In this document: in pieces, positions 1 to 48,952 of the stretch | Layout: every line of letters starts with the position of its first letter | Position numbering within the stretch: position 1 is the stretch's first letter | Source of the DNA: a virus | Virus record (IMG/VR): IMGVR_UViG_3300006217_000086 | Length of the DNA: 48,952 nt | Strand: one strand, 5' to 3' | Notes under the pieces: model-generated | Seen by the model: the letters and a program-made list of their open reading frames with translations, nothing else | Database searches by the model: none | What the model was told of the DNA's origin: nothing | Translations under genes and position numbers: made by a program

Positions 1-77
1 CGCTCCGGCTGCTCCGGCAGCCCGGCCGCTTTGCTGAACCGGCGGTACTGCTCGTTCAGCCGCCGCAGGCGGACGGC
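1..77. repeat. 77-bp terminal overlap, identical to 48876..48952 (circular closure, assembler-style overlap)
   Basis: Direct comparison: cgctccggctgctccggcagcccggccgctttgctgaaccggcggtactgctcgttcagccgccgcaggcggacggc occurs at both ends. Confidence 0.95.
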
Positions 78-308
78 GGCCGCCTGGGCCTCCTCCGGCA
101 GGCCCGCGGCCGCAAAGGCCCCCTGCCGCCGCCGTTGGCGGCGGATGCTCCGCTCCAGGCTCCGCTGCATCTGGGACGCCTGGTAGTCGTCGTACTCCCG
201 GCCCTCAAATTCGATTTTCGGCCGGTTCTCCGGCTTCATGGCCTCCAGCTCCGCGTCGGTGCAGGTCCGCTCCGATACGCCCTCAATAAATGGCCAGAAG
301 CTGTGGCG
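1..308 (-). CDS. MuF-family (SPP1 gp7-like) minor capsid / polymorphic-toxin protein, segment downstream of the in-frame TAG. It continues across the circular junction into 48152..48952.
   Basis: The frame opens right after TAG (311..309): RHSFWPFIEGVSERTCTDAELEAMKPENRPKIEFEGREYDDYQASQMQRSLERSIRRQ.... Codon phase at 77 equals that at 48952. A possible restart ATG lies at 239. Confidence 0.7.
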
Positions 309-386
309 CTATCGGCAGTTCGCCCCTCCTATGCCAGTTACGGAACCATATCCGCACGTCTTTTCAAAATCGGGATAACTGTTCAA
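309..386 (-). CDS. MuF gene fragment 2: (TTG)NSYPDFEKTCGYGSVTGIGGANCR followed by in-frame TAG
   Basis: Contains the conserved YPDF...GYG...G.NCR block of the Mu F domain. SD-like GGGGGTGAT lies 7 nt upstream of TTG at 386. The stop TAG at 311..309 interrupts the NCRH motif. Confidence 0.5.
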   Translation of the reverse strand: MNSYPDFEKTCGYGSVTGIGGANCR

Positions 387-426
387 AATATCACCCCCTA
401 TAACAATCTTCGAAATTGCCAGCAAC

Positions 427-589
427 GATTTCGTAGGGGCGGTTATCAACCGCCCGTTCCCCCAGGCTTCCCGGCCGCAACGGCCAGGCCCTGTCCCCCC
501 AGATTGCCCCTTCCCCCGGAAGCGCCGCTCCTGTGTGGCTCTGCGGGCGGCTGATAGCCGCCCCTACGGGGTGCTGCGCGGGTTGATGA
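427..589 (-). repeat. 163-bp structured GC/G-tract element, copy 1 (inside the interrupted MuF gene)
   Basis: Homologous to 2244..2406. The first 32 nt are identical, and there is a conserved distal block ggctctgcgggcgg..gccgcccctacggggtgc. Terminal 24-nt inverted repeat: cgtaggggcggttatcaaccgccc / gggcggctgatagccgcccctacg. Confidence 0.85.
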
Positions 590-612
590 TTGCCATAAAT
601 TGCCTGTCCTGT

Positions 613-1434
613 TCATGGATGCCGCTCCGGTCCTGCGCCCCTGCCGCCGCGTTTCCACCGGTACACCTTCCCCTGCCATTTCGCATGGTTCTCCCACCCG
701 TTTGGCCCGTCAATATTCCGCGCCCCCAGGTGGGCGGTCACCTCCACCAGGTCCGTCTGGAGGAACTCCATGCTCTGCTCCCGGTACCGCTGGTTCAGCT
801 GGTTCACGCCGGTCATGACAGCCCTTCTCACGGCGACGTCCACACTGTCTACGTGCCCGCTCTCATAGCTGACTGTTTTCAATCCGCTGTCCGCCAGCTG
901 CCGCACGGCGCCGGCAATGGCCCGGTGATAGCCAAATGCCCCGGACTGTATTTTCAGCACCGCGGAATCCAGGGCCCACTGATACGCCTTTCCCGGCTCC
1001 AGCAGCACCCTTCCCCGGCCCTGGTGCACCAGGAAGCCCATGGATTGGGTGATGTTTTGCAGCTGGCCCCGGGTCTGCTGGTAAATGGCCCAGACCGTCT
1101 CGTGGTCCACAAGCCGCTCTGGGGCCGTGAGGCCCGCCAGGCCGGCGAGGCCGCCGTAATACTGCCGGTTCCGCCGGACCACGTCCTCCAGCAGAGCGGC
1201 CAGAGTCTCCTCACCCGCGCCGCTGGTTTTGGCAATGGCCTTTTGGATGTCTGCCAGAGGGAGGCCCAGACCCCGTAGGGCCCGGAGGTTCTGGACCGTC
1301 ACCTCGTTCAGGGCCCCCGCCGCCCGCAGCCGGGTACAGATGCCCTCCAGCAGTTCCTGCTCCAGGCCCCGGTACTGCTCCGCCAGCGCCTCCGGCAGGG
1401 CGTCCAGAACCGTGGGAGTGAAGGGATAGGTCAC
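613..1434 (-). CDS. MuF-family minor capsid (head morphogenesis) protein, N-terminal fragment
   Basis: GTG start with AAAGGAG SD. The N-terminus (LPEALAEQYRGLEQELLEGICTRL) and ...VEVTAHLGARN..HAKWQGKVY are typical of SPP1 gp7/Mu F proteins. It stops at 613 before the YPDF/NCRH block. Confidence 0.8.
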   Translation of the reverse strand: MTYPFTPTVLDALPEALAEQYRGLEQELLEGICTRLRAAGALNEVTVQNLRALRGLGLPLADIQKAIAKTSGAGEETLAALLEDVVRRNRQYYGGLAGLAGLTAPERLVDHETVWAIYQQTRGQLQNITQSMGFLVHQGRGRVLLEPGKAYQWALDSAVLKIQSGAFGYHRAIAGAVRQLADSGLKTVSYESGHVDSVDVAVRRAVMTGVNQLNQRYREQSMEFLQTDLVEVTAHLGARNIDGPNGWENHAKWQGKVYRWKRGGRGAGPERHP

Positions 1435-1446
1435 GGGGCTTCTCCT

Positions 1447-2196
1447 TTACCGCACGCCGCCATCCCCCAGGAACAAAAGCCGGAAGGTCTCCCGGCCCTT
1501 GGGGGTCACCAGGGTCTGGGTGCCGCTCCATTGGGTCTTCTCGTTGAAGCACTCCTTGACCTCAAACAAGCCGCCTGCCACATGGGGATGATAGGGAAGC
1601 AGCTTCCCCTTCTGGTCCCGATAGATGTACTTGTGCCGCAGCAGCTCCGAAACAAAGGCCTTTGGGCCAATCTCCAGCTGCTTGGCGGTCTCCCGGAAAT
1701 TGGTCAGCAGGTTCCGTTCCACCAGCTGGTCAAAGTAGTCCGCCTTTGGGCGCATCATCTGGTTGTCCACCGTCAGGGCGGAAATGCGGGCCTCCCGGTC
1801 CGCGATGGTCTTCTGGGCCAGCAGCAGGGCCTTTGCCATCAGCTCCTCCGGCGTCATGCGGTCCTGCCCCGCGATGTAGCCGCCACTGCGCCGGATGGAG
1901 GGCAGGACTTCATCAAAAATCCAGCTCTCGAACTCAGCGGCCCCCGGAAGGTCCGACCGGGCCGCAAGGCGATAGATGTCCCCCTCGGGGATGAAATTCA
2001 TTTCCTGTTCTCTGCCCAGTTTATCGGTGAGGTGGCGTTTCACCACCCCACGGCAATGCTGCTTGATGGCATTAGTAGTGTCCTTGTAGCCCAGCGCCGC
2101 CGCCACGTCCTTGCCGCAGAACAGCGTCACGCCGTTCTCCGTGATGGTCCGCACCTCTCCAAACTTTGGGCTCCCAAAGATTTGCAATTCATTCAT
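1447..2196 (-). CDS. Bro-N / KilA-C (ANT) antirepressor-like protein
   Basis: N-terminus MNELQIFGSPKFGEVRTITENGVTLFCGKDVAAALGY is a Bro-N pattern. The C-terminus matches the phage antirepressor KilAC pattern (ADYFDQLV...FRETAK). AAAGGAG SD. Confidence 0.8.
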   Translation of the reverse strand: MNELQIFGSPKFGEVRTITENGVTLFCGKDVAAALGYKDTTNAIKQHCRGVVKRHLTDKLGREQEMNFIPEGDIYRLAARSDLPGAAEFESWIFDEVLPSIRRSGGYIAGQDRMTPEELMAKALLLAQKTIADREARISALTVDNQMMRPKADYFDQLVERNLLTNFRETAKQLEIGPKAFVSELLRHKYIYRDQKGKLLPYHPHVAGGLFEVKECFNEKTQWSGTQTLVTPKGRETFRLLFLGDGGVR

Positions 2197-2243
2197 GGGG
2201 ATTGCTCCTTTTTATCAATGCAGGCAGTTCCTTCCCCGCCCGG

Positions 2244-2406
2244 GATTTCGTAGGGGCGGTTATCAACCGCCCGTTGGCAACAGGCCCGTCCGCAACAGAC
2301 CGGGCCCCGTCCCCCCAAGATCGCCCGTTCCCCCGGACGCACCGCGCCCTTGCGGCTCTGCGGGCGGCAGATTGCCGCCCCTACGGGGTGCCGCATGGGT
2401 TGAGGA
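2244..2406 (-). repeat. 163-bp structured GC/G-tract element, copy 2 (between a portal-coupled small ORF and the bro gene)
   Basis: Same length and same terminal hairpins as 427..589. The centre has diverged, but the G-tracts are retained. Confidence 0.85.
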
Positions 2407-2550
2407 CTGCGGCAGAATGGCTCTCCGGACCCGCAGCAGCTTCACCGTGCCGCCGGGCCCGGGAATCAGCTCCACTCGGTCCCCCCGGGAGAGCACCGCC
2501 TCCGCCGCCGCAATCTGCCCCGCATCCAGCCGTACCAGGTCTCTGCTCAT
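2263..2550 (-). CDS. Small ORF translationally coupled to the portal gene (ATGA overlap). The first ~47 aa are possibly SpoVT/AbrB-like, and the ORF then runs into repeat copy 2.
   Basis: MSRDLVRLDAGQIAAAEAVLSRGDRVELIPGPGGTVKLLRVRR... The reading frame enters the element at about 2406 and terminates inside or after it at 2263. Confidence 0.35.
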   Translation of the reverse strand: MSRDLVRLDAGQIAAAEAVLSRGDRVELIPGPGGTVKLLRVRRAILPQSSTHAAPRRGGNLPPAEPQGRGASGGTGDLGGTGPGLLRTGLLPTGG

Positions 2551-3995
2551 CACGCACCGCCTCCCTCTCTCATGCCCCGCGCCAAAAGCGCTCCGATTTC
2601 CGCCGGCGGCTCCTCCGCCAGGTCCGCCGCCCCCGGCAGCATCCGGCGGGCGGTTTTCTCGTCCTCGCCGTACCACTTCATCCGGAACTCCCAGTCGTTC
2701 ATCAGCCCGGCGGCCACCTGCTGCAGGTCCAGGGCCAGGTCCTGCCGGCGGGTGTCCGGGTCGTCCAGCACGCCGTCACCCCAGCGGTACTCCGTCTGAT
2801 ACACCCCCGCCGGGGCCAGGCCCTCCAAGGTGCACAGGGCGTCCATGGCGTACACCAGGCCGTCCAGGGCTGTCTCCAGGGCCCTTTGGATGGCCCGCTC
2901 CGTCACATACTGCCGGTGCCTGGCGGCCAGCACCTCCGTGGCGGTCTTCTCCACGCTCTGGGGGTCCGACAGCGTGCCGTAGGACAGCCCCACGTTGAAC
3001 TCCATCCGCTGGAGGATGTGCTGAAAGCCCCGGTACAGCGGCTCGTCCCGAAAAGCGGGGCTGAACTCCCGGAAGAAGTCCCCGCCGCCGGAGAAGGGGC
3101 CGAAGAGGAACAGCCGGTCATCCAGCGCCTCCGGGCCCTTGGCTGTGTCGTCGGCAAAGATTTTCCGCTCGCCGCTGCGGTACTCCCACAAAAGCTGCTC
3201 CCACTGCCGGTCCGCCTGGCGGAGCAGGTCCGCCGTGGGCCCCGCATAGACCGACACCCCCAGGGGGGACGCCGGCTCCAGGCCGTTGCCGCCCGGGGGC
3301 CGGAACCAGGCGAACAGCGGCCCCTCCAGGTGCGCAATCTCCGCCCGCCGGGGGAGGCCCCGCCAAGCCTCCACGGCATCCAGCGGCACCTCCGCCCCGA
3401 CGGCGCCCTCCGCGCTGCTGCGAAAGGCCCGGTGCTCCACCACATAGGTCCGGCCCCCCTCTTTTCGCGGCAGGAAGTCGTGGTATTCCAGCTTGAGGAA
3501 CCACTGGGCCCCCTGCCGCACCGGCCGGCTCTGGAACACGCCGCCCACGGCCCGCCCAGTCCCGTCAAAGCGGGTGGGCGTGAAGCCGGCCGTCACCGTC
3601 TCCACCCGGATGCGGCCGTCCTCCGCATAGGGCCGCAGGGCCGCGCCCCCCAGGCACAGGCCCAGCTCCAGCGTCCGCTCCAGGTCCGCCGCCGCCCTTT
3701 GCAGCTGGGCGTCCAGATAGGCCCCCCGGGCCCCGCCGGAGACGGCGGCGGAGAACTCCGTCAGGGCGTGGCGGCTCAGCTCCCGGCCGATGGCCGCCGG
3801 CAGGCCCAGGGGCCGCACCGGGCCCTTCGCCCAGGGCGGCTGGTTGGTGTACAGGTCCCACCACAGCCGGGCCCCCTCCTCCATGACCCGGGAGGCGGCG
3901 GGGCGGACGCCGAAGGTCTTTTCCAGGACGCCGGCGGGCAGCTGGGGCCGGGTCCGTGTTTTGAACAGGCCCCTGGCCCAGTCCAACAGGTTCAA
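2550..3995 (-). CDS. Portal protein (SPP1 gp6-like)
   Basis: Likely TTG start at 3995, 7 nt after AGGAGGAA and just past the terminase stop. About 481 aa, positioned between the terminase and MuF genes. The track ORF extends to 4178. Confidence 0.8.
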   Translation of the reverse strand: MNLLDWARGLFKTRTRPQLPAGVLEKTFGVRPAASRVMEEGARLWWDLYTNQPPWAKGPVRPLGLPAAIGRELSRHALTEFSAAVSGGARGAYLDAQLQRAAADLERTLELGLCLGGAALRPYAEDGRIRVETVTAGFTPTRFDGTGRAVGGVFQSRPVRQGAQWFLKLEYHDFLPRKEGGRTYVVEHRAFRSSAEGAVGAEVPLDAVEAWRGLPRRAEIAHLEGPLFAWFRPPGGNGLEPASPLGVSVYAGPTADLLRQADRQWEQLLWEYRSGERKIFADDTAKGPEALDDRLFLFGPFSGGGDFFREFSPAFRDEPLYRGFQHILQRMEFNVGLSYGTLSDPQSVEKTATEVLAARHRQYVTERAIQRALETALDGLVYAMDALCTLEGLAPAGVYQTEYRWGDGVLDDPDTRRQDLALDLQQVAAGLMNDWEFRMKWYGEDEKTARRMLPGAADLAEEPPAEIGALLARGMREGGGA

Positions 3996-4008
3996 GATGG
4001 CTTCCTCC

Positions 4009-5607
4009 TCACTGCCCGCGCCGCTTCCAGATGGTCTCTGTGGCGTAGCGCACGGCGTCGATGTGATGGTTGTTCCGGTCCGGATAGCCGCTGAGAACGG
4101 CCCCGTCCCGGGTTCGTTCATACTCGTACTCCGCAAACTCCCGGTACGTGTCCGGGCACCGCTCCGGGTCAATGACAATCTTCACCAGGGACTGCAGCCA
4201 CTTCATGGAGTAGTCCACGCTGCCCGGCCCCTTCTCCGCCCCCAGGCACCGGAGGCCGAAGGTCCGGTAATCGGCGATGCTCTTGGGCTCCGCGCTGTCG
4301 GCGGTGATGAGGTCCTCGCCGGTGAGGCCCCGCTTCCGCAGAAGCTCCGCCGTCTCCCGGTTGCCCGTTTTCAGGGCGGTCAGCTCGTCGAAGATGTACA
4401 GCGTCCGCCGGGCGGCGTCGTAGTGCACCCGGTTAAAGGCCCAGGGGTCCGGATAAAAGCCCCAGTCCACGCCGCAGAGGACCCGGTCAAAGGCCGCAAT
4501 CCGCTCCGCCGGAATGGGCTCCGGGGCCAGGTTCTCAAAGACCATGCCGCCGCTGCCGTTGGGGATGCCCAGGTACTCGTGCTCATAGGCGGCGGGGTTC
4601 CTCTGCCGCAGGTCCTCCGCCTCGTCCAGAAAGGCCCGCCCCAGCCACTCCGGCGGCACGCTGCGGTAGTCGGAGTGGGTGACCCGGCGGCTTTCCCTGG
4701 GCAGGGCACAGGCGCGGTTGGCCCAGTTGCTTTTTGTCTTGGGGGGATTGAAGCTTTTGAAGATATAGGCCGCGTCGCCGCCGCGGACGGCGGACTGCTG
4801 AATGCTGCGGCACTCCTCGTCGCCGGCAAACTGGTCCAGCTCCTCAAACCAGAGGATGCCGATGTAGCCAAAGGGCGGCTTAATGGATTTCAGCTTCAGG
4901 GGGTCATCGGCGCCGCGGAAATAGATTTTCTGCCCGGTGGAGCGGCAGGTGATTTCCAGGGGAGACTTCGTGTGGCTGAAGTCCCCGCCCAGCCCCAGGG
5001 CCTCAATGGCCCACCGCACCTGGGTGAACACGGAGTCCCGCAGGGTGTTGCTCACCTTGCGGCAGCAGAGGGCGTGCATCTCCGGGTGGGTCCGCAGCAG
5101 GGAGACCACCTCCAGGGAGACGAAGGAGGACTTGGCCGAGCCGCGGCCGCCCTTTTCCACATACTCCGTGTGCCGCCCGGCCAGGATGTCCAGATGGTCC
5201 GCCGCAAAGGCCGGGGCGATCAGCCGGGCGGGAAGCTCAAAGGCGGCATGGCCGCTGTCGGCCGGGGCGCTGTCCTTCGGTTCCCAGGCGCCCAGGTGCC
5301 GGCCCAGCAGCTCCAGGGCTTTTAGCTTGTTGGCGTACTTCAGCGCGCTGTCCGGGGCGTCGGAGGCGGCCATGTCCGTGATTTCCCGAAGCCGGTCAAT
5401 CACATAGTCCTGCGTGACCTCCGTGCGCTGCCGGCGGGCCTGCATGGCGGCCTGGACCGCTTGGGAAACACAGGTTTTCCCAAGCAGCGCCGGGCCGGTC
5501 CGGTCCGCTGTTTTCGCGCTGTATCCTGCTCTCCGGGCCGCGGCGGTGGCATTCAAATCCACCAGGTATTCTTGTACAAACCGCTCCTGCTTCGGTGTTA
5601 ATGCCAT
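4009..5607 (-). CDS. Terminase: small-subunit (Terminase_2-like) N-terminus fused in frame to a PBSX/XtmB-type large subunit
   Basis: N-terminus MALTPKQERFVQEYLVDLNATAAARRAGYSAKTA is a TerS pattern. From about aa 140, ...YVEKGGRGSAKSSF (Walker A) and the remainder match TerL. There is no stop between the two parts. Confidence 0.8.
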   Translation of the reverse strand: MALTPKQERFVQEYLVDLNATAAARRAGYSAKTADRTGPALLGKTCVSQAVQAAMQARRQRTEVTQDYVIDRLREITDMAASDAPDSALKYANKLKALELLGRHLGAWEPKDSAPADSGHAAFELPARLIAPAFAADHLDILAGRHTEYVEKGGRGSAKSSFVSLEVVSLLRTHPEMHALCCRKVSNTLRDSVFTQVRWAIEALGLGGDFSHTKSPLEITCRSTGQKIYFRGADDPLKLKSIKPPFGYIGILWFEELDQFAGDEECRSIQQSAVRGGDAAYIFKSFNPPKTKSNWANRACALPRESRRVTHSDYRSVPPEWLGRAFLDEAEDLRQRNPAAYEHEYLGIPNGSGGMVFENLAPEPIPAERIAAFDRVLCGVDWGFYPDPWAFNRVHYDAARRTLYIFDELTALKTGNRETAELLRKRGLTGEDLITADSAEPKSIADYRTFGLRCLGAEKGPGSVDYSMKWLQSLVKIVIDPERCPDTYREFAEYEYERTRDGAVLSGYPDRNNHHIDAVRYATETIWKRRGQ

Positions 5608-5637
5608 ACCACCACCTCTCAGTCAAAGTCAAATAGC

Positions 5638-5709
5638 GCGGGCGGCTGGGAATCGAACCCGCCGCGGGCGGTTTTGGAGACCGCCCCGCCGCCTTGGTAC
5701 ATGCGCCCG
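5638..5709 (-). tRNA. tRNA-like element (anticodon loop CU-CCA-AA would be Trp); possibly a pseudo-tRNA
   Basis: Minus-sense sequence: cgggcgc..gcggt-ctccaaa-accgc..gcggg-ttcgatt-cccag-ccgcccg. The anticodon arm, GGTTCGATTCC T-loop and 6/7 acceptor pairing are good. The D-stem is poor and the T-stem has 2 mismatches. Confidence 0.35.
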
Positions 5710-5796
5710 TATGCTTTGCGCCGCCCCCAGGGGAGAAACGCGGCCCTGCGGGAGGAGGCTCCCACAGGGCTATTATGACAGAGATTTTCCATGGCT

Positions 5797-5814
5797 GTCC
5801 CACAGTTGTGGGAC
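5797..5814. promoter_or_regulatory. Near-perfect 18-bp inverted repeat (8-bp arms, 2-nt centre) gtcccacagttgtgggac, immediately after the HTH gene stop and upstream of the tRNA-like element and terminase
   Basis: Read directly from the sequence. An A7T6 run flanks it. Confidence 0.5.
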
Positions 5815-5816
5815 GG

Positions 5817-6029
5817 TCAAAAAAATTTTTTCCGGCCCAGCAGATAGTCGGTGGAGACTTCAAAGAAGTCCGCAATTTTTTCCAACGAACGGATGGTGGG
5901 CTCCCGCTCCCCCCGCTCATACTGCCCGATGATGTTCTTGCTCAGCCCGCACAGCTCCCCCAGGGCCTTACGATTCATCCGCCGTTTCTCCCGCAGCTTC
6001 CGGAGCCGCTTCGGGAACTCAGATGTCAC
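5817..6029 (-). CDS. XRE-family HTH protein
   Basis: GTG start after AGGAGGAAGG. FPKRLRKLREKRRMNRKALGELCGLSKNIIGQYERGEREPTIRSLEKIADFFEVSTDYLLG is a canonical HTH_3 pattern. Confidence 0.8.
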   Translation of the reverse strand: MTSEFPKRLRKLREKRRMNRKALGELCGLSKNIIGQYERGEREPTIRSLEKIADFFEVSTDYLLGRKKFF

Positions 6030-15996: not shown

Positions 15997-16737
15997 TTAT
16001 TCGACCTCCATCCAGTAAACCGATGCACTACGAACTCCTTGTGCCAGCGCCTCTGCATGGGTAGAGACGCAAAGGTCAATGTGATTCCCACGGATGGACG
16101 TTCCTACATCATCCGCCCGGTAACAATGGATTTCCCCATCGCCATAGTCAACCAGGACTGTGCTGCCAAGGGGAATCACCTCCGGGTCCACCGCAACGCT
16201 GACATATGGGAGCGCCGGAACACCGCGGGCCGTCATTCCGTCTGTTTTTCCGCAGCACACAAGACAGCAGTCATAGTGTGTGACCGTGCAGAGGCCCAGC
16301 TCCCGCGCCCAGGGGAAGCGCCGGGCCGCCTGGCTGTACTCCGGGGGAACCGCTTCCTCCGCGGCGCGGGGGTGGGGGGATAGGCGGTCTTGGGGGGACG
16401 GGCGATTGATCATCGCCCCTACGGGGGCCTCTGCGGCTGCCGAACCGGCCTGTCCGTCAAGGTTGCCGGCCTTTGCCCGGGGCCAGACCGCCGCCAGGGC
16501 CAGGACCTCCACGGCGATGGCCGCCGTCAGGGCCCCGATGGCCGCCGTCTTCCAGACCGTCCGGGCCCGCTCCGCCTCCGCCAGACGCCGCCGCGCCTCC
16601 CGGCGCTCCCGGAGCGCCCGGTCCAGGGCCTCCTGCCGCAGCTCCTGCCTCTTGGCCTCCAGGGCCGCCAGCGCCTCCGCCTGGGCGCTCTGGGCCGCCT
16701 CCAGACGCCGCAGGCGCTTGGATTGCTTGCCGCTCAT
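15997..16737 (-). CDS. 3D-domain (MltA/RlpA-like) protein with an N-terminal coiled coil and a TM segment
   Basis: C-terminus THYDCCLVCCGKTDGMTARGVP...VAVDPEVIPLGS...YRADDVGTSIRGNHIDLCVSTHAEA is the 3D-domain pattern. Confidence 0.75.
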   Translation of the reverse strand: MSGKQSKRLRRLEAAQSAQAEALAALEAKRQELRQEALDRALRERREARRRLAEAERARTVWKTAAIGALTAAIAVEVLALAAVWPRAKAGNLDGQAGSAAAEAPVGAMINRPSPQDRLSPHPRAAEEAVPPEYSQAARRFPWARELGLCTVTHYDCCLVCCGKTDGMTARGVPALPYVSVAVDPEVIPLGSTVLVDYGDGEIHCYRADDVGTSIRGNHIDLCVSTHAEALAQGVRSASVYWMEVE

Positions 16738-17504
16738 ACGCTCCCCCCTTCCTTCGGCACCCAATGGCCGGACTGCAGGTTTTCCGGCTTTTGCGCGGCG
16801 GATACGATTGCGCAGTCCGGCCACAGCGCTTTCTTGACGCGCATTCCGGCAAAGACGCAGAACCCATCGCCTGCCTTGATGCCGCGGCCTGCCTCGATGC
16901 CCCAGCCTGCCTCGATGCCCCAGCCTGCCTCGATGCCAAGGCCTGCCTCGATGCCAAGGCCTGCCTCGATGTCGCAGCCTGCCTTGATGCCCCAGCCTGC
17001 CTCGATGCCGCAGCCTGCCTCGATGCCATCGCCTGCCTCGATGCCAAGGCCTGCCTCGATGCCAAGGCCTGCCTCGATGCCGCAGCCTGCCTCGATGCCC
17101 CAGCCTGCCTCGATGCCATAGACTGCCTTGATGCCATCGCCTGCCTCGATGCCGCAGCCTGCCTTGATGCCCCAGCCTGCCTCGATGCCAAGGCCTGCCT
17201 CGATGCCGCGGCCTGCCCGAATATATCTGGCCCTGACACCTCCATCAAATCGGAGGCTCCCGGCAAACAGAATCGTCCGGTCCGGCGCGTCAAGTTCCTC
17301 GCCAAAAACCCGCTCCTCATTCGTCGGGCCCAGATGCTCCAGCAGCCAGCTGCCGAAATCCAGGCGGTCCTCCTCCGCGCAGCGGTCCAGCACCTCCTGA
17401 TAGCCGCCGCCGTCCGGAAACACCCGCTGAAATTCCCTCTGCCCTTCCCGGCAGGCGCCCAGCTCCCGCAAATACGGAAGCGTAATCTTAAAATCCCCTG
17501 TCAT
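16734..17504 (-). CDS. Hexapeptide-repeat protein, about 20 x (G-I-E/K-A-G-x), predicted beta-helix
   Basis: GIEAGLGIEAGWGIKAGCGIEAGD... encoded by an 18-bp tandem DNA repeat. Unique N-terminal domain MTGDFKITLPYLRELGACREGQ. Confidence 0.7.
   Translation of the reverse strand: MTGDFKITLPYLRELGACREGQREFQRVFPDGGGYQEVLDRCAEEDRLDFGSWLLEHLGPTNEERVFGEELDAPDRTILFAGSLRFDGGVRARYIRAGRGIEAGLGIEAGWGIKAGCGIEAGDGIKAVYGIEAGWGIEAGCGIEAGLGIEAGLGIEAGDGIEAGCGIEAGWGIKAGCDIEAGLGIEAGLGIEAGWGIEAGWGIEAGRGIKAGDGFCVFAGMRVKKALWPDCAIVSAAQKPENLQSGHWVPKEGGSV
16869..17210. repeat. 19 x 18-bp tandem repeat (gcctgcctcgatgccNNN) inside the CDS
   Basis: Counted directly. Only the last 3 nt of each unit vary systematically. 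Confidence 0.95.
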
Positions 17505-48151: not shown

Positions 48152-48952
48152 TCACACCAGTCCTTTTAATGCTATTATAGCATCCTTTTCAAAGTTTGGG
48201 AATAGAATATGGAAAAGATTCAAAACATCTTTATTATTTTGGAATTGAATTCTCCCAAACTGCGCCCATGCTTCCAGCTCCAAGAAGCCTTTCGTTCTCC
48301 AATAATTCCTCGGGTGACCATAGCCATAGTCTATTTTTCCCACTGAAAATCCATTTAGAATATCGGCAATCCCACGATATTCTTCTTTGAACACCGTTCT
48401 TCCTGTCAAAGAGTTTGTTTCAAACAGATTGGGGAATTTCGACACAAGGTACTGTTTCACATCGCCTCCGCTTGCTGCATTCAGCGCCAGGTAGTCGTTC
48501 ATCAAACTTTCCGAAAATCTCTGACTGACCCGCCCGCCCACATCCATTCTGTGAAACAGCTCATGCACCAATGTGGAGGCATCCGCATTCGCTCCAATGT
48601 GGATGATATTCAGCCCGGGCCCTGGGTGGAAATACGAGCGGGCCCCGCTTTCCACAATATAATCCGCATTCCGGTACACCTTCCGCAGCGCCGCCCGCAT
48701 TTCCGGCGTGGTGCGGGCCATGCCGTCATGGAAGGACTTCCGAAGCCCTTTGGGCAGCCCGCCAAAGCCGGTCACCTTCCGCAGCTTGGCCGCGCTCTTG
48801 GCCGCTCTCCTGGCCCGGTCGCCAAGATCACTTTCTGCCGCCGCCAGAGGTCCGCCGCCCTCCAGCACCCGCAGCCGCTCCGGCTGCTCCGGCAGCCCGG
48901 CCGCTTTGCTGAACCGGCGGTACTGCTCGTTCAGCCGCCGCAGGCGGACGGC
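48152..48952 (-). CDS. MuF-family protein, C-terminal HExxH metallopeptidase-like module (continuation of 1..308 across the junction)
   Basis: ...ASTLVHELFHRMD... (HExxH) with a downstream ELEAWAQF. The 3' ~300 nt are conspicuously AT-rich relative to the rest of the gene. Confidence 0.7.
   Translation of the reverse strand, partial: AVRLRRLNEQYRRFSKAAGLPEQPERLRVLEGGGPLAAAESDLGDRARRAAKSAAKLRKVTGFGGLPKGLRKSFHDGMARTTPEMRAALRKVYRNADYIVESGARSYFHPGPGLNIIHIGANADASTLVHELFHRMDVGGRVSQRFSESLMNDYLALNAASGGDVKQYLVSKFPNLFETNSLTGRTVFKEEYRGIADILNGFSVGKIDYGYGHPRNYWRTKGFLELEAWAQFGRIQFQNNKDVLNLFHILFPNFEKDAIIALKGLV
48876..48952. repeat. Second copy of the 77-bp terminal overlap
   Basis: Identical to 1..77. Confidence 0.95.

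Follow-up and report, generated by a model that had tools for sequence, protein, structure and literature searches.

The stretch of DNA analysed here, IMG/VR virus record IMGVR_UViG_3300006217_000086 (48,952 nucleotides; "the window" below means this whole stretch), is a complete temperate phage genome, circularly permuted/terminally redundant, with a unique length of 48,875 bp. Its ends overlap by 77 nt, positions 1-77 being repeated at 48876-48952; the minor capsid gene spans the circular junction, and the genes include a tyrosine integrase and an S24-type repressor. Our subject is a direct repeat of about 165 bp, present as two intercistronic copies (E1 and E2) in the head operon, each built of two inverted repetitive extragenic palindromic (REP) units, together with a lone REP unit (E3) elsewhere in the genome. 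The genes around both copies lie on the minus strand, in the order TerL, portal, small open reading frame (ORF), E2, Bro-N/ANT, MuF-N, E1 and MuF-C. The features are these, G4 standing for a canonical G-quadruplex motif:

309..386, minus strand: beginning of MuF-C, the C-terminal half of the split minor capsid protein, with its own ribosome-binding site (RBS), TTG, MNSYPDF...GGANCR and in-frame TAG (311-309)
427..593, minus strand: E1, head-to-head REP dimer with its shared flank, separating the split MuF halves
432..456, plus strand: E1 REP unit, identical to 2249-2273
457..543, minus strand: E1 spacer, 87 nt, G4 motif 489-517
544..568, minus strand: E1 REP unit GTAGGGGCGGCTATCAGCCGCCC, the commonest variant in the genome sample
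613..1434, minus strand: N-terminal half of the split minor capsid protein (Phage_min_cap2/MuF-like; MuF-N), ending just past ...WQGKVYRW
1447..2196, minus strand: Bro-N/ANT antirepressor-like gene (bro), between both copies
2244..2410, minus strand: E2, head-to-head REP dimer plus about 25 nt of shared flank, between the small ORF and bro
2249..2273, plus strand: E2 REP unit C-GTAG-GGGCGGTT-ATC-AACCGCCC-G, whose 23-mer is identical to units flanking a transposase-like gene in bacterial locus L147
2274..2360, minus strand: E2 spacer, 87 nt, G-rich on the minus strand, with a central hairpin (UUG loop) and G4 motif 2305-2334
2361..2385, minus strand: E2 REP unit GTAGGGGCGGCAATCTGCCGCCC, identical to units flanking the transposase-like gene of bacterial locus L175; second commonest variant in the genome sample
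2263..2550, minus strand: small ORF, 95 aa, reading through E2
3995-2550, minus strand: portal
5607-4009, minus strand: TerL
16400..16423, minus strand: E3, lone REP unit GTAGGGGCGATGATCAATCGCCC, then a C-rich tract, in the linker of a 3D-domain protein gene (15997-16824)

The contig of about 48.9 kb is also found at 100% identity in the NCBI metagenome-assembled genome (MAG) GCA_900327815.1 and in JGI, ENA and Logan assemblies, and because these are independent of one another the two-copy arrangement is real and not an assembly artefact. The downstream cistrons have Shine-Dalgarno sequences of their own (AAAGGAG-N8-ATG for bro, GGGGGTGA-N5-TTG for MuF-C), and the conserved frame of MuF-C goes on past its TAG through 308-1 and over the circular junction to 48152. 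The distances to the start codons had been given as 41-47 nt in the first-pass annotation, a model's reading of the letters alone, and are about that: the bro ATG (2196) is 47 nt away and the TTG (386) 40 nt. The same annotation had the small ORF after the portal (2550-2263) reading into the element, as it does, running on through E2.

In a BLASTN comparison E1 (427-593) and E2 (2244-2410) align over 170 columns at 83.5% identity with 4 gap openings (E ~1e-39), and the nhmmer self-matches of both copies have E values of 5e-55 and 2e-54. The claim of two copies in the same orientation is borne out by these matches, and so is that of an identical 32-nt end (427-458 = 2244-2275); the limits first proposed for the repeat, 427..589 and 2244..2406, hold except that similarity reaches slightly beyond them, to 593 and 2410. 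The termini are indeed inverted repeats, with 25-nt arms that are 92% complementary in E1 and 84% in E2. Each arm has the form C-GTAG-GGGCGG(N2)-NNN-(N2)CCGCCC-G, in which the GTAG is unpaired and precedes a GC-rich stem of 10 bp with a loop of 3 nt. All five units in the window show GTAG and then GGGCG..CGCCC, four of them with 8 perfect pairs around a 3-nt loop and E3 with 7 perfect pairs around a 5-nt loop; one preceding G-C pair brings the REP stem to 10 bp. Searching the window for CGTAGGGGCGG-N7-CCGCCC with at most 2 mismatches gives 5 matches, against 0.04 expected from shuffled sequence, of which four are the ends of E1 and E2 and the fifth is the lone unit at 16400-16423, whose orientation relative to transcription is opposite to that of E1 and E2. 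The sequence shared by the two copies does not stop at the REP units but runs about 25 nt past one (the right-hand hairpin on the plus strand) and 5 nt past the other. Between the units, the spacers of E1 and E2 differ at 23 of 89 aligned columns.

From this anatomy, each copy is a REP heterodimer, its two units placed head to head (GTAG out) around a spacer of 87 nt. It resembles both the REP doublets forming hairpins (REPINs) and the bacterial interspersed mosaic elements (BIMEs), the latter being pairs of y and z REPs with linker motifs. GTAG REPs as published have a 5-13 bp stem and a 2-20 nt loop, form head-to-head dimers whose spacers span 20-100 bp, and also occur inside genes (PMC3733652), and REPINs such as those of Pseudomonas fluorescens SBW25 are mobilised by REP-associated tyrosine transposases (RAYTs) (Bertels and Rainey 2011, PMC3116915). 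REPs are selfish repeats, and the RAYT that spreads them is a domesticated transposase.

The differences between E1 and E2 are unevenly spread, 2 falling in the 50 arm positions and 28 in the 119 positions elsewhere (Fisher p = 0.0017), and the two arm differences make up a single compensatory pair, T-A in E1 and A-T in E2. The 5' hairpin had been described as a kept stem with loops that differ, UAUCA versus AAUCU. The stem is kept, but what looked like a loop difference is this one U-A to A-U change around a constant AUC triloop. While the swap leaves the local hairpin perfect, it lowers the arm-to-arm complementarity from 23/25 in E1 to 21/25 in E2, so that constraint acts on the individual REP hairpin and not on the long-range closure. 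The constraint on the arms could come from recognition by a RAYT, from gene conversion out of a REP pool, or from an independent origin of the two doublets from two REPIN copies. The switch-like architecture proposed for the element fares accordingly: complementary arms are there, but the one change between them weakens the long-range pairing that a switch would use, and a choice between local hairpins and long-range closure comes automatically with any inverted REP dimer.

The same hairpins are found well beyond this phage. An IMG/VR scan with the motif CGTAGGGGCGG-N7-CCGCCCG, its N7 left free, gave 168 sites in 108 stretches, with 54 distinct N7 sequences. Among these 54 variants, positions 1 and 7 are Watson-Crick paired in 93% and positions 2 and 6 in 87%, all four Watson-Crick types being used, and positions 3 and 5 pair at chance level (28%). 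Because the N7 was unconstrained, this pairing is independent of how the sites were collected, and by this measure the REP stem is evidently under selection. In round figures, hairpins of this kind are present in about a hundred IMG/VR contigs. In a scan of bacterial genomes, one per species, at least 120 loci matched; among the matches listed, almost all are MAGs of Oscillospiraceae, Ruminococcaceae, Clostridia, Faecousia, Oscillibacter, Avoscillospira or Lawsonibacter, or Pseudoflavonifractor isolates, and often several contigs from one genome are among them. The sampled bacterial loci, 820 kb in all, hold 409 units with GTAG and a perfect stem, arranged as singletons, tandem arrays, and head-to-head and tail-to-tail inverted dimers. 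Gaps in the GTAG-outward dimers of these loci range from 2 to 378 nt, about ten of them falling within 81-101 nt. A dispersed high copy number is thus a trait of the bacterial lineage, the phage itself having only 5 units. The two right-arm variants of E1 and E2 are the two commonest in the genome sample, with 91 and 61 units.

Doublets with a conserved interior occur in these bacteria as well. A head-to-head REP homodimer of 111 nt, with a 60-nt conserved spacer and 5-6-nt conserved flanks, is nearly identical on three Clostridia MAG contigs, here as fetched loci:

L155, 2608-2718: 111-nt dimer copy
L148, 1319-1429: 111-nt dimer copy
L241, 3599-3709: 111-nt dimer copy

On sequence grounds, these dimers represent a genuine REPIN-type population in Bacillota.

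Five ORFs in the sampled bacterial loci are RAYT-like, carrying the HUH and Tyr motifs that mark Y1 transposases. Four of them were compared with Pfam: three score at or above the Y1_Tnp (PF01797) cut-off of 23 (25.5, 25.0 and 23.0 bits), and the fourth has no Pfam match. NCBIfam NF047646, REP_Tyr_transpos ("REP-associated tyrosine transposase"), is the best match of both ORFs scanned with it (E 6e-20 and 2e-18). The L147 gene, from MAG CALYRG01, has nine tandem REP units on one side and two inverted units on the other; these flanking units include GTAGGGGCGGTTATCAACCGCCC, which is exactly the phage hairpin at 433-455 and 2250-2272, as well as a GCGAT..ATCGC variant resembling E3. The L175 gene is flanked by GTAGGGGCGGCAATCTGCCGCCC, which is exactly the second E2 hairpin, and a RAYT-like ORF in L178 is likewise flanked by family units. 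Identical REP 23-mers and the RAYT-like genes they flank evidently constitute the REPtron arrangement described for GTAG REPs (PMC3733652), and the picture that these loci give is of an abundant GTAG-REP family, with REPtrons, that lives in gut and rumen Clostridia. In the 2013 GTAG-repeat survey of Di Nocera et al., Firmicutes/Bacillota are not among the phyla listed (PMC3733652); Group 1 RAYTs have been reported in Clostridia (PMC5581495), and no paper on REPs in Oscillospiraceae was found in a limited literature collection. TnpA-REP works on single-stranded REP hairpins and recognises them through GTAG and stem, the GTAG being required (PMC8266576), a mechanism with which the arrangement at these loci agrees.

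As an observation apart, REP hairpins also lie inside RAYT-like ORFs (L165 6737-6942, L175 3711-3733, L178 495-679), where they are translated as VGADIIRP or GRQIAAPT, and L185 has tandem PSGTPAPTRE repeats. To judge from these sequences, RAYT-like genes appear to have been invaded by, or built around, their own substrate.

The phage has no such gene. No RAYT-like ORF was found in the window, the best hidden Markov model match having E = 5.6, and the precomputed Pfam lists of the called phage genes contain no Y1_Tnp or other transposase family. The first-pass annotation had already reported a genome without a transposase; this fits a non-autonomous element mobilised in trans, and with no RAYT-like ORF in the phage any mobilisation would have to act that way.

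How the phage came by the hairpins is suggested by its relatives. In 14 related phage loci, with 59-70% MuF-N identity, there are 0 GTAG hairpins. In most of them portal and MuF-N are adjacent, which marks the block of small ORF, E2 and bro as an insertion relative to these phages. On this comparison the REP hairpins were gained in this phage lineage; their lack in related phages agrees with gain and is no proof of transposition. The small ORF has a homologue in related phage L113, where it sits elsewhere in the head module, is 50 aa long and ends soon after the common ...VRVRR motif. The 95-aa protein of the window consists of a conserved domain of about 45 aa and about 50 Gly/Pro/Arg-rich residues encoded by the REP dimer (2263-2410), and given the length of the homologue, E2 has displaced the stop of the small ORF and supplies its last 50 or so codons. 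E3 and its C-rich tract encode ...APVGAMINRPSPQDRLSPHP..., which lies in the variable linker of a cell-wall hydrolase-like protein with a 3D domain (ORF 15997-16824, minus strand). No empty site for E3 was demonstrable in homologues of this protein, and because their linkers are unrelated or too variable, an insertion of E3 is not cleanly demonstrable either.

Taken together, these results lead us to read each copy as a GTAG-type REP head-to-head dimer, a REPIN/BIME-like non-autonomous element belonging to a RAYT-associated family of Oscillospirales, with a probability of roughly 0.75. We call it a REP dimer and no new RNA class. The idea of a miniature mobile element was therefore right in kind but not in its newness, the GTAG REP dimer being a known kind. 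Most likely both copies belong to one REPIN lineage and did not arise by a fresh duplication.

Several points weigh against this reading. The full unit of about 165 nt, spacer included, was not found outside this phage, which leaves it with no demonstrated source population: the whole unit has no match among GenBank phages (blastn, "distant" mode), none elsewhere in IMG/VR and metagenome contigs with a 24-base spacer pattern that matches both window copies, and none by nhmmer and blastn over the 242 fetched loci. A 27-nt end pattern retrieved from IMG/VR and metagenome contigs just a lone REP, a single unit downstream of a bacterial chromosomal gene, and a search by protein words, using the joined stop-free frames of E1 and E2, returned at least 8000 candidates, none of which scored. 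These whole-unit negatives are weak, for the metagenome scan missed JGI contig L260 (3300006149 Ga0080712_1000142), which has the pattern twice because it carries both copies; "no match" in metagenomes is hence not proof of absence. All recovered assemblies are 100% identical, with no presence/absence polymorphism and no evidence of mobility, and exact-protein look-ups for four genes (bro, MuF-N, TerL, GNAT) led to phages that were 100% identical, to no others and to no prophage-host junction. The unit is not bounded exactly by its REPs, and the overshoot of about 25 nt and 5 nt is compatible with segmental duplication or recombination too. The NF047646 scores of 72 and 67 bits are under the equivalog cut-off of 80, and RNA-level effects of the doublets in the phage can only be inferred, by analogy.

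The strongest competitor concerns the second copy. One intergenic segment with a REP doublet may have been duplicated or recombined within the phage during shuffling of the bro/small-ORF cassette and then diverged, with no transposition at all. We regard such a local duplication scar as a serious though distinctly less likely account. The shared sequence that overshoots the REPs is what duplication would leave, the direct repeats flank bro and MuF-N and both sit at cassette junctions, and no other full-length copy was found, in searches that are incomplete; the missing outside copy and the overshoot of about 25 nt are what keep recombinational duplication alive for the second copy. However, the arms are nearly untouched at 16.5% divergence overall, and their one swap is between the two commonest variants of the family, unlike neutral decay. 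A third REP also lies elsewhere in the genome, in the opposite orientation. Even a duplicated segment would still be REP-derived, so that the dispute is limited to the origin of the second copy.

A dedicated structured RNA, that is, a switch-like cis-regulatory or processing RNA selected in the late operon and controlling bro and MuF-C, is in our view improbable. Both copies are intercistronic, in sense orientation and 40-47 nt ahead of a start codon. In the minimum-energy folds of both RNA and DNA a long-range stem joins the 25-nt arms 87 nt apart, as is inherent in an inverted dimer, and the predicted RNA folds (-90 to -99 kcal/mol) are more stable than those of shuffles, with z about -2.8. 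The central spacer hairpin stays paired in both copies despite one G-C to U-A change and wobble changes, which would favour such an RNA, but with two sequences this is anecdotal and has no statistical weight as covariation. Against the idea, related phages with the same operon lack the element entirely, and a hairpin that the 14 related loci are without is not a conserved regulatory part of the head operon; E3 is antisense and inside a gene; the same hairpins are chromosomal repeats in both orientations; and the arm change weakens the long-range pairing while keeping the local stem. Rfam gives 0 matches at gathering thresholds in the window and no family even at E up to 5: the relaxed search over 380-2460 returns noise only (E 0.85-4), none of it overlapping E2, and the one noise match that overlaps E1, NsiR9 at 525-634, has E 2.1 and 16.4 bits against a gathering score of 90. 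The candidate new structured RNA is accordingly not supported, given the Rfam result, the 14 related loci and the reversed, intragenic E3. Two other candidates were set aside. A scan of 1-6000 for intrinsic terminators gives no terminator-like site in either copy, the hairpins being followed by CGAAAUC, and a template/variable repeat pair of a diversity-generating retroelement does not fit differences that are not adenine-specific, although no reverse-transcriptase search was made.

Much fainter is the case for a G-quadruplex element, in which the coding-sense G-tracts would fold into a G4 with a role in regulating translation or in stalling replication or transcription. The conserved G-tracts pointed out at the outset are present, one canonical G4 motif (G3+N1-7 x4, with G5-G6 runs) lying on the minus strand of each copy (489-517 and 2305-2334), and these are 2 of the window's 6. 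The window as a whole is depleted, however, with 6 such motifs against 11.7 expected from shuffles, and the tracts sit in the strong Watson-Crick structure described above. The runs may be a family trait, since runs of C and of G are found after the REP units of the L147 REPtron arrays too; yet C-run tails after REP units are not enriched across 404 family units. The idea that the spacer is a decayed REP array was rejected, local alignment to the L147 array being no better than that of shuffled spacers. Last and least likely of all is a classical miniature inverted-repeat transposable element, moved by a DDE transposase that binds its 24-nt terminal inverted repeats, for although the element is small and does have 25-nt inverted termini, there is no target-site duplication (flanks AACGATTT/GGGTGCTG for E1 and GGGATTT/GGGTGCCG for E2) and each supposed terminal repeat is a GTAG hairpin of which genomes also hold single, tandem and tail-to-tail units, which is REP behaviour.

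If the copies are REP dimers of this family, the doublets would have entered phage DNA inside a RAYT-bearing host. While the phage replicated, a RAYT may have cut and joined single strands at the GTAG hairpins; or the phage may have recombined with DNA of the host or of another phage in which doublets were already present. We consider the two routes roughly equally likely. Once there, they would be essentially passengers at two cassette-exchange junctions of the head operon, the portal/MuF junction and the MuF split site. REPs and BIMEs of bacterial chromosomes stabilise upstream mRNA and bind host proteins, and the Correia and enterobacterial repetitive intergenic consensus (ERIC) elements are co-transcribed and form a long hairpin that RNase III or RNase E can cut, with a change in the stability of neighbouring cistrons (cited in PMC3733652). 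By analogy, the transcribed arms would form either twin hairpins or a GC-rich closing stem of 21-23 bp between cistrons, and the closing stem might serve as a 3'-exonuclease barrier shielding the upstream message, as an RNase III-type processing site, or as both, with the downstream cistrons translated from their own Shine-Dalgarno sites. The 170-bp direct repeats could also promote recombination across bro and MuF-N. A bolder extension is that REPIN-type doublets ride the temperate phage as a horizontal vehicle, and that the phage may have co-opted them as intercistronic RNA punctuation and as recombination joints at its cassette junctions (bro, and the toxin/immunity modules of the split MuF); we think this unlikely, if a little less so than the dedicated RNA.

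The MuF split site merits description for its own sake. In this phage and in 13 of the 14 related loci (L109-L122), the Phage_min_cap2/MuF-type gene is split after WQGKVYRW (window 654-386, minus strand), and only in L120 is it intact. The downstream half always restarts with its own RBS and M-x-x-YPDF. In the relatives the gap holds 0.4-1.7 kb of lower-GC cargo, with an ADP-ribosyltransferase toxin (ADPrib_exo_Tox), CdiA_C and small putative immunity ORFs, and in some related loci toxin domains are fused to the N-terminal MuF half; in this phage it holds little but E1. An intron was considered and rejected, since whole genes occupy this site in the relatives, where reading starts anew from a separate RBS and ATG. 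Farther on, an in-frame TAG lies inside the invariant GGANCRH of MuF-C, the window reading TGC CGA TAG CGC CAC (317-303, minus strand) where relatives have TGC CGN/AGG CAC. This six-base insertion recurs in at least 6 diverged phage lineages (L116, L262-L269), as CGA-TAG-CGU/CGC/CGA or CGC-TAG-CGC and never with CGG. The frame past the TAG is conserved with many synonymous differences, and removing exactly six bases restores the consensus motif. From the sequence pattern, CGA-TAG-CGN looks like a programmed +6 hop of peptidyl-tRNA-Arg over the UAG, or like readthrough of the UAG, either of which would keep the amount of full-length protein low; a hop would need matched Arg codons such as those that bracket the UAG here.

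What the phage adds is a known kind of repeat in an unusual place. REP and REPIN elements have been described mainly from Proteobacteria and a few other phyla, and have been argued to be inherited vertically with a single-copy RAYT. Here the complete genome of a temperate phage, itself without a RAYT, holds REP units, a whole head-to-head dimer among them, and phage carriage, if true, would give a supposedly vertical REPIN-RAYT system a means of horizontal transfer. By its exact REP variants the phage would have a host akin to the MAG with the matching REPtron, which gives a practical host marker for uncultured phages; should a host lineage hold many copies that conserve the spacer, and a RAYT flanked by GGTTATCAACC units, both the REPIN population and the host would be found. 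The case also suggests REP gain in phage DNA replicated in a RAYT-positive host as a readout of REPIN mobility. For annotation it carries a warning, in that REP repeats extend or split ORFs, as with the 95-aa "small protein" and peptides of the VGA.INRP or GRQIAAPT type.

Among known systems, the GTAG REP dimers and REPINs (PMC3733652, PMC3116915) come closest. The phage elements share with them an unpaired GTAG beside a GC-rich stem-loop, two inverted units with GTAG outward, a spacer in the 20-100 bp range, heterodimer arms, units that are also single, tandem or intragenic, and identical units that flank RAYT-like genes. They depart from them in lying in a temperate phage, with only two dimers and one singleton and no RAYT in the replicon, in a Bacillota/Clostridia setting outside the 2013 survey, and in a phage spacer that is G-rich with a hairpin of its own and whose source population was not found. 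The E. coli BIMEs and their TnpA-REP (PMC8266576) offer a similar plan, two non-identical inverted REPs with an internal linker, intercistronic in operons; the phage units, however, are without the E. coli stem bulge, have other stem sequences and are joined by a linker much longer than the S and L motifs.

Also comparable are the Neisseria Correia repeat enclosed elements (CREE) and the Yersinia ERIC elements or intergenic repeat units (IRU), which are likewise repeats of about 100-160 bp with terminal inverted repeats and are the model for the RNA-level effect supposed above. Correia elements, however, have TA target duplications, and neither GTAG hairpin ends nor an association with a RAYT. 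The palindrome-associated transposable elements (PATEs) derived from IS200/IS605 are also non-autonomous, have hairpin ends recognised as single-stranded DNA by a Y1 HUH transposase, and make no target-site duplication. Their ends, though, are the distinct left and right subterminal hairpins of the insertion sequence and not two inverted copies of one GTAG REP, and the proteins linked to REPs of the phage type score best as REP-associated transposase, not as IS200.

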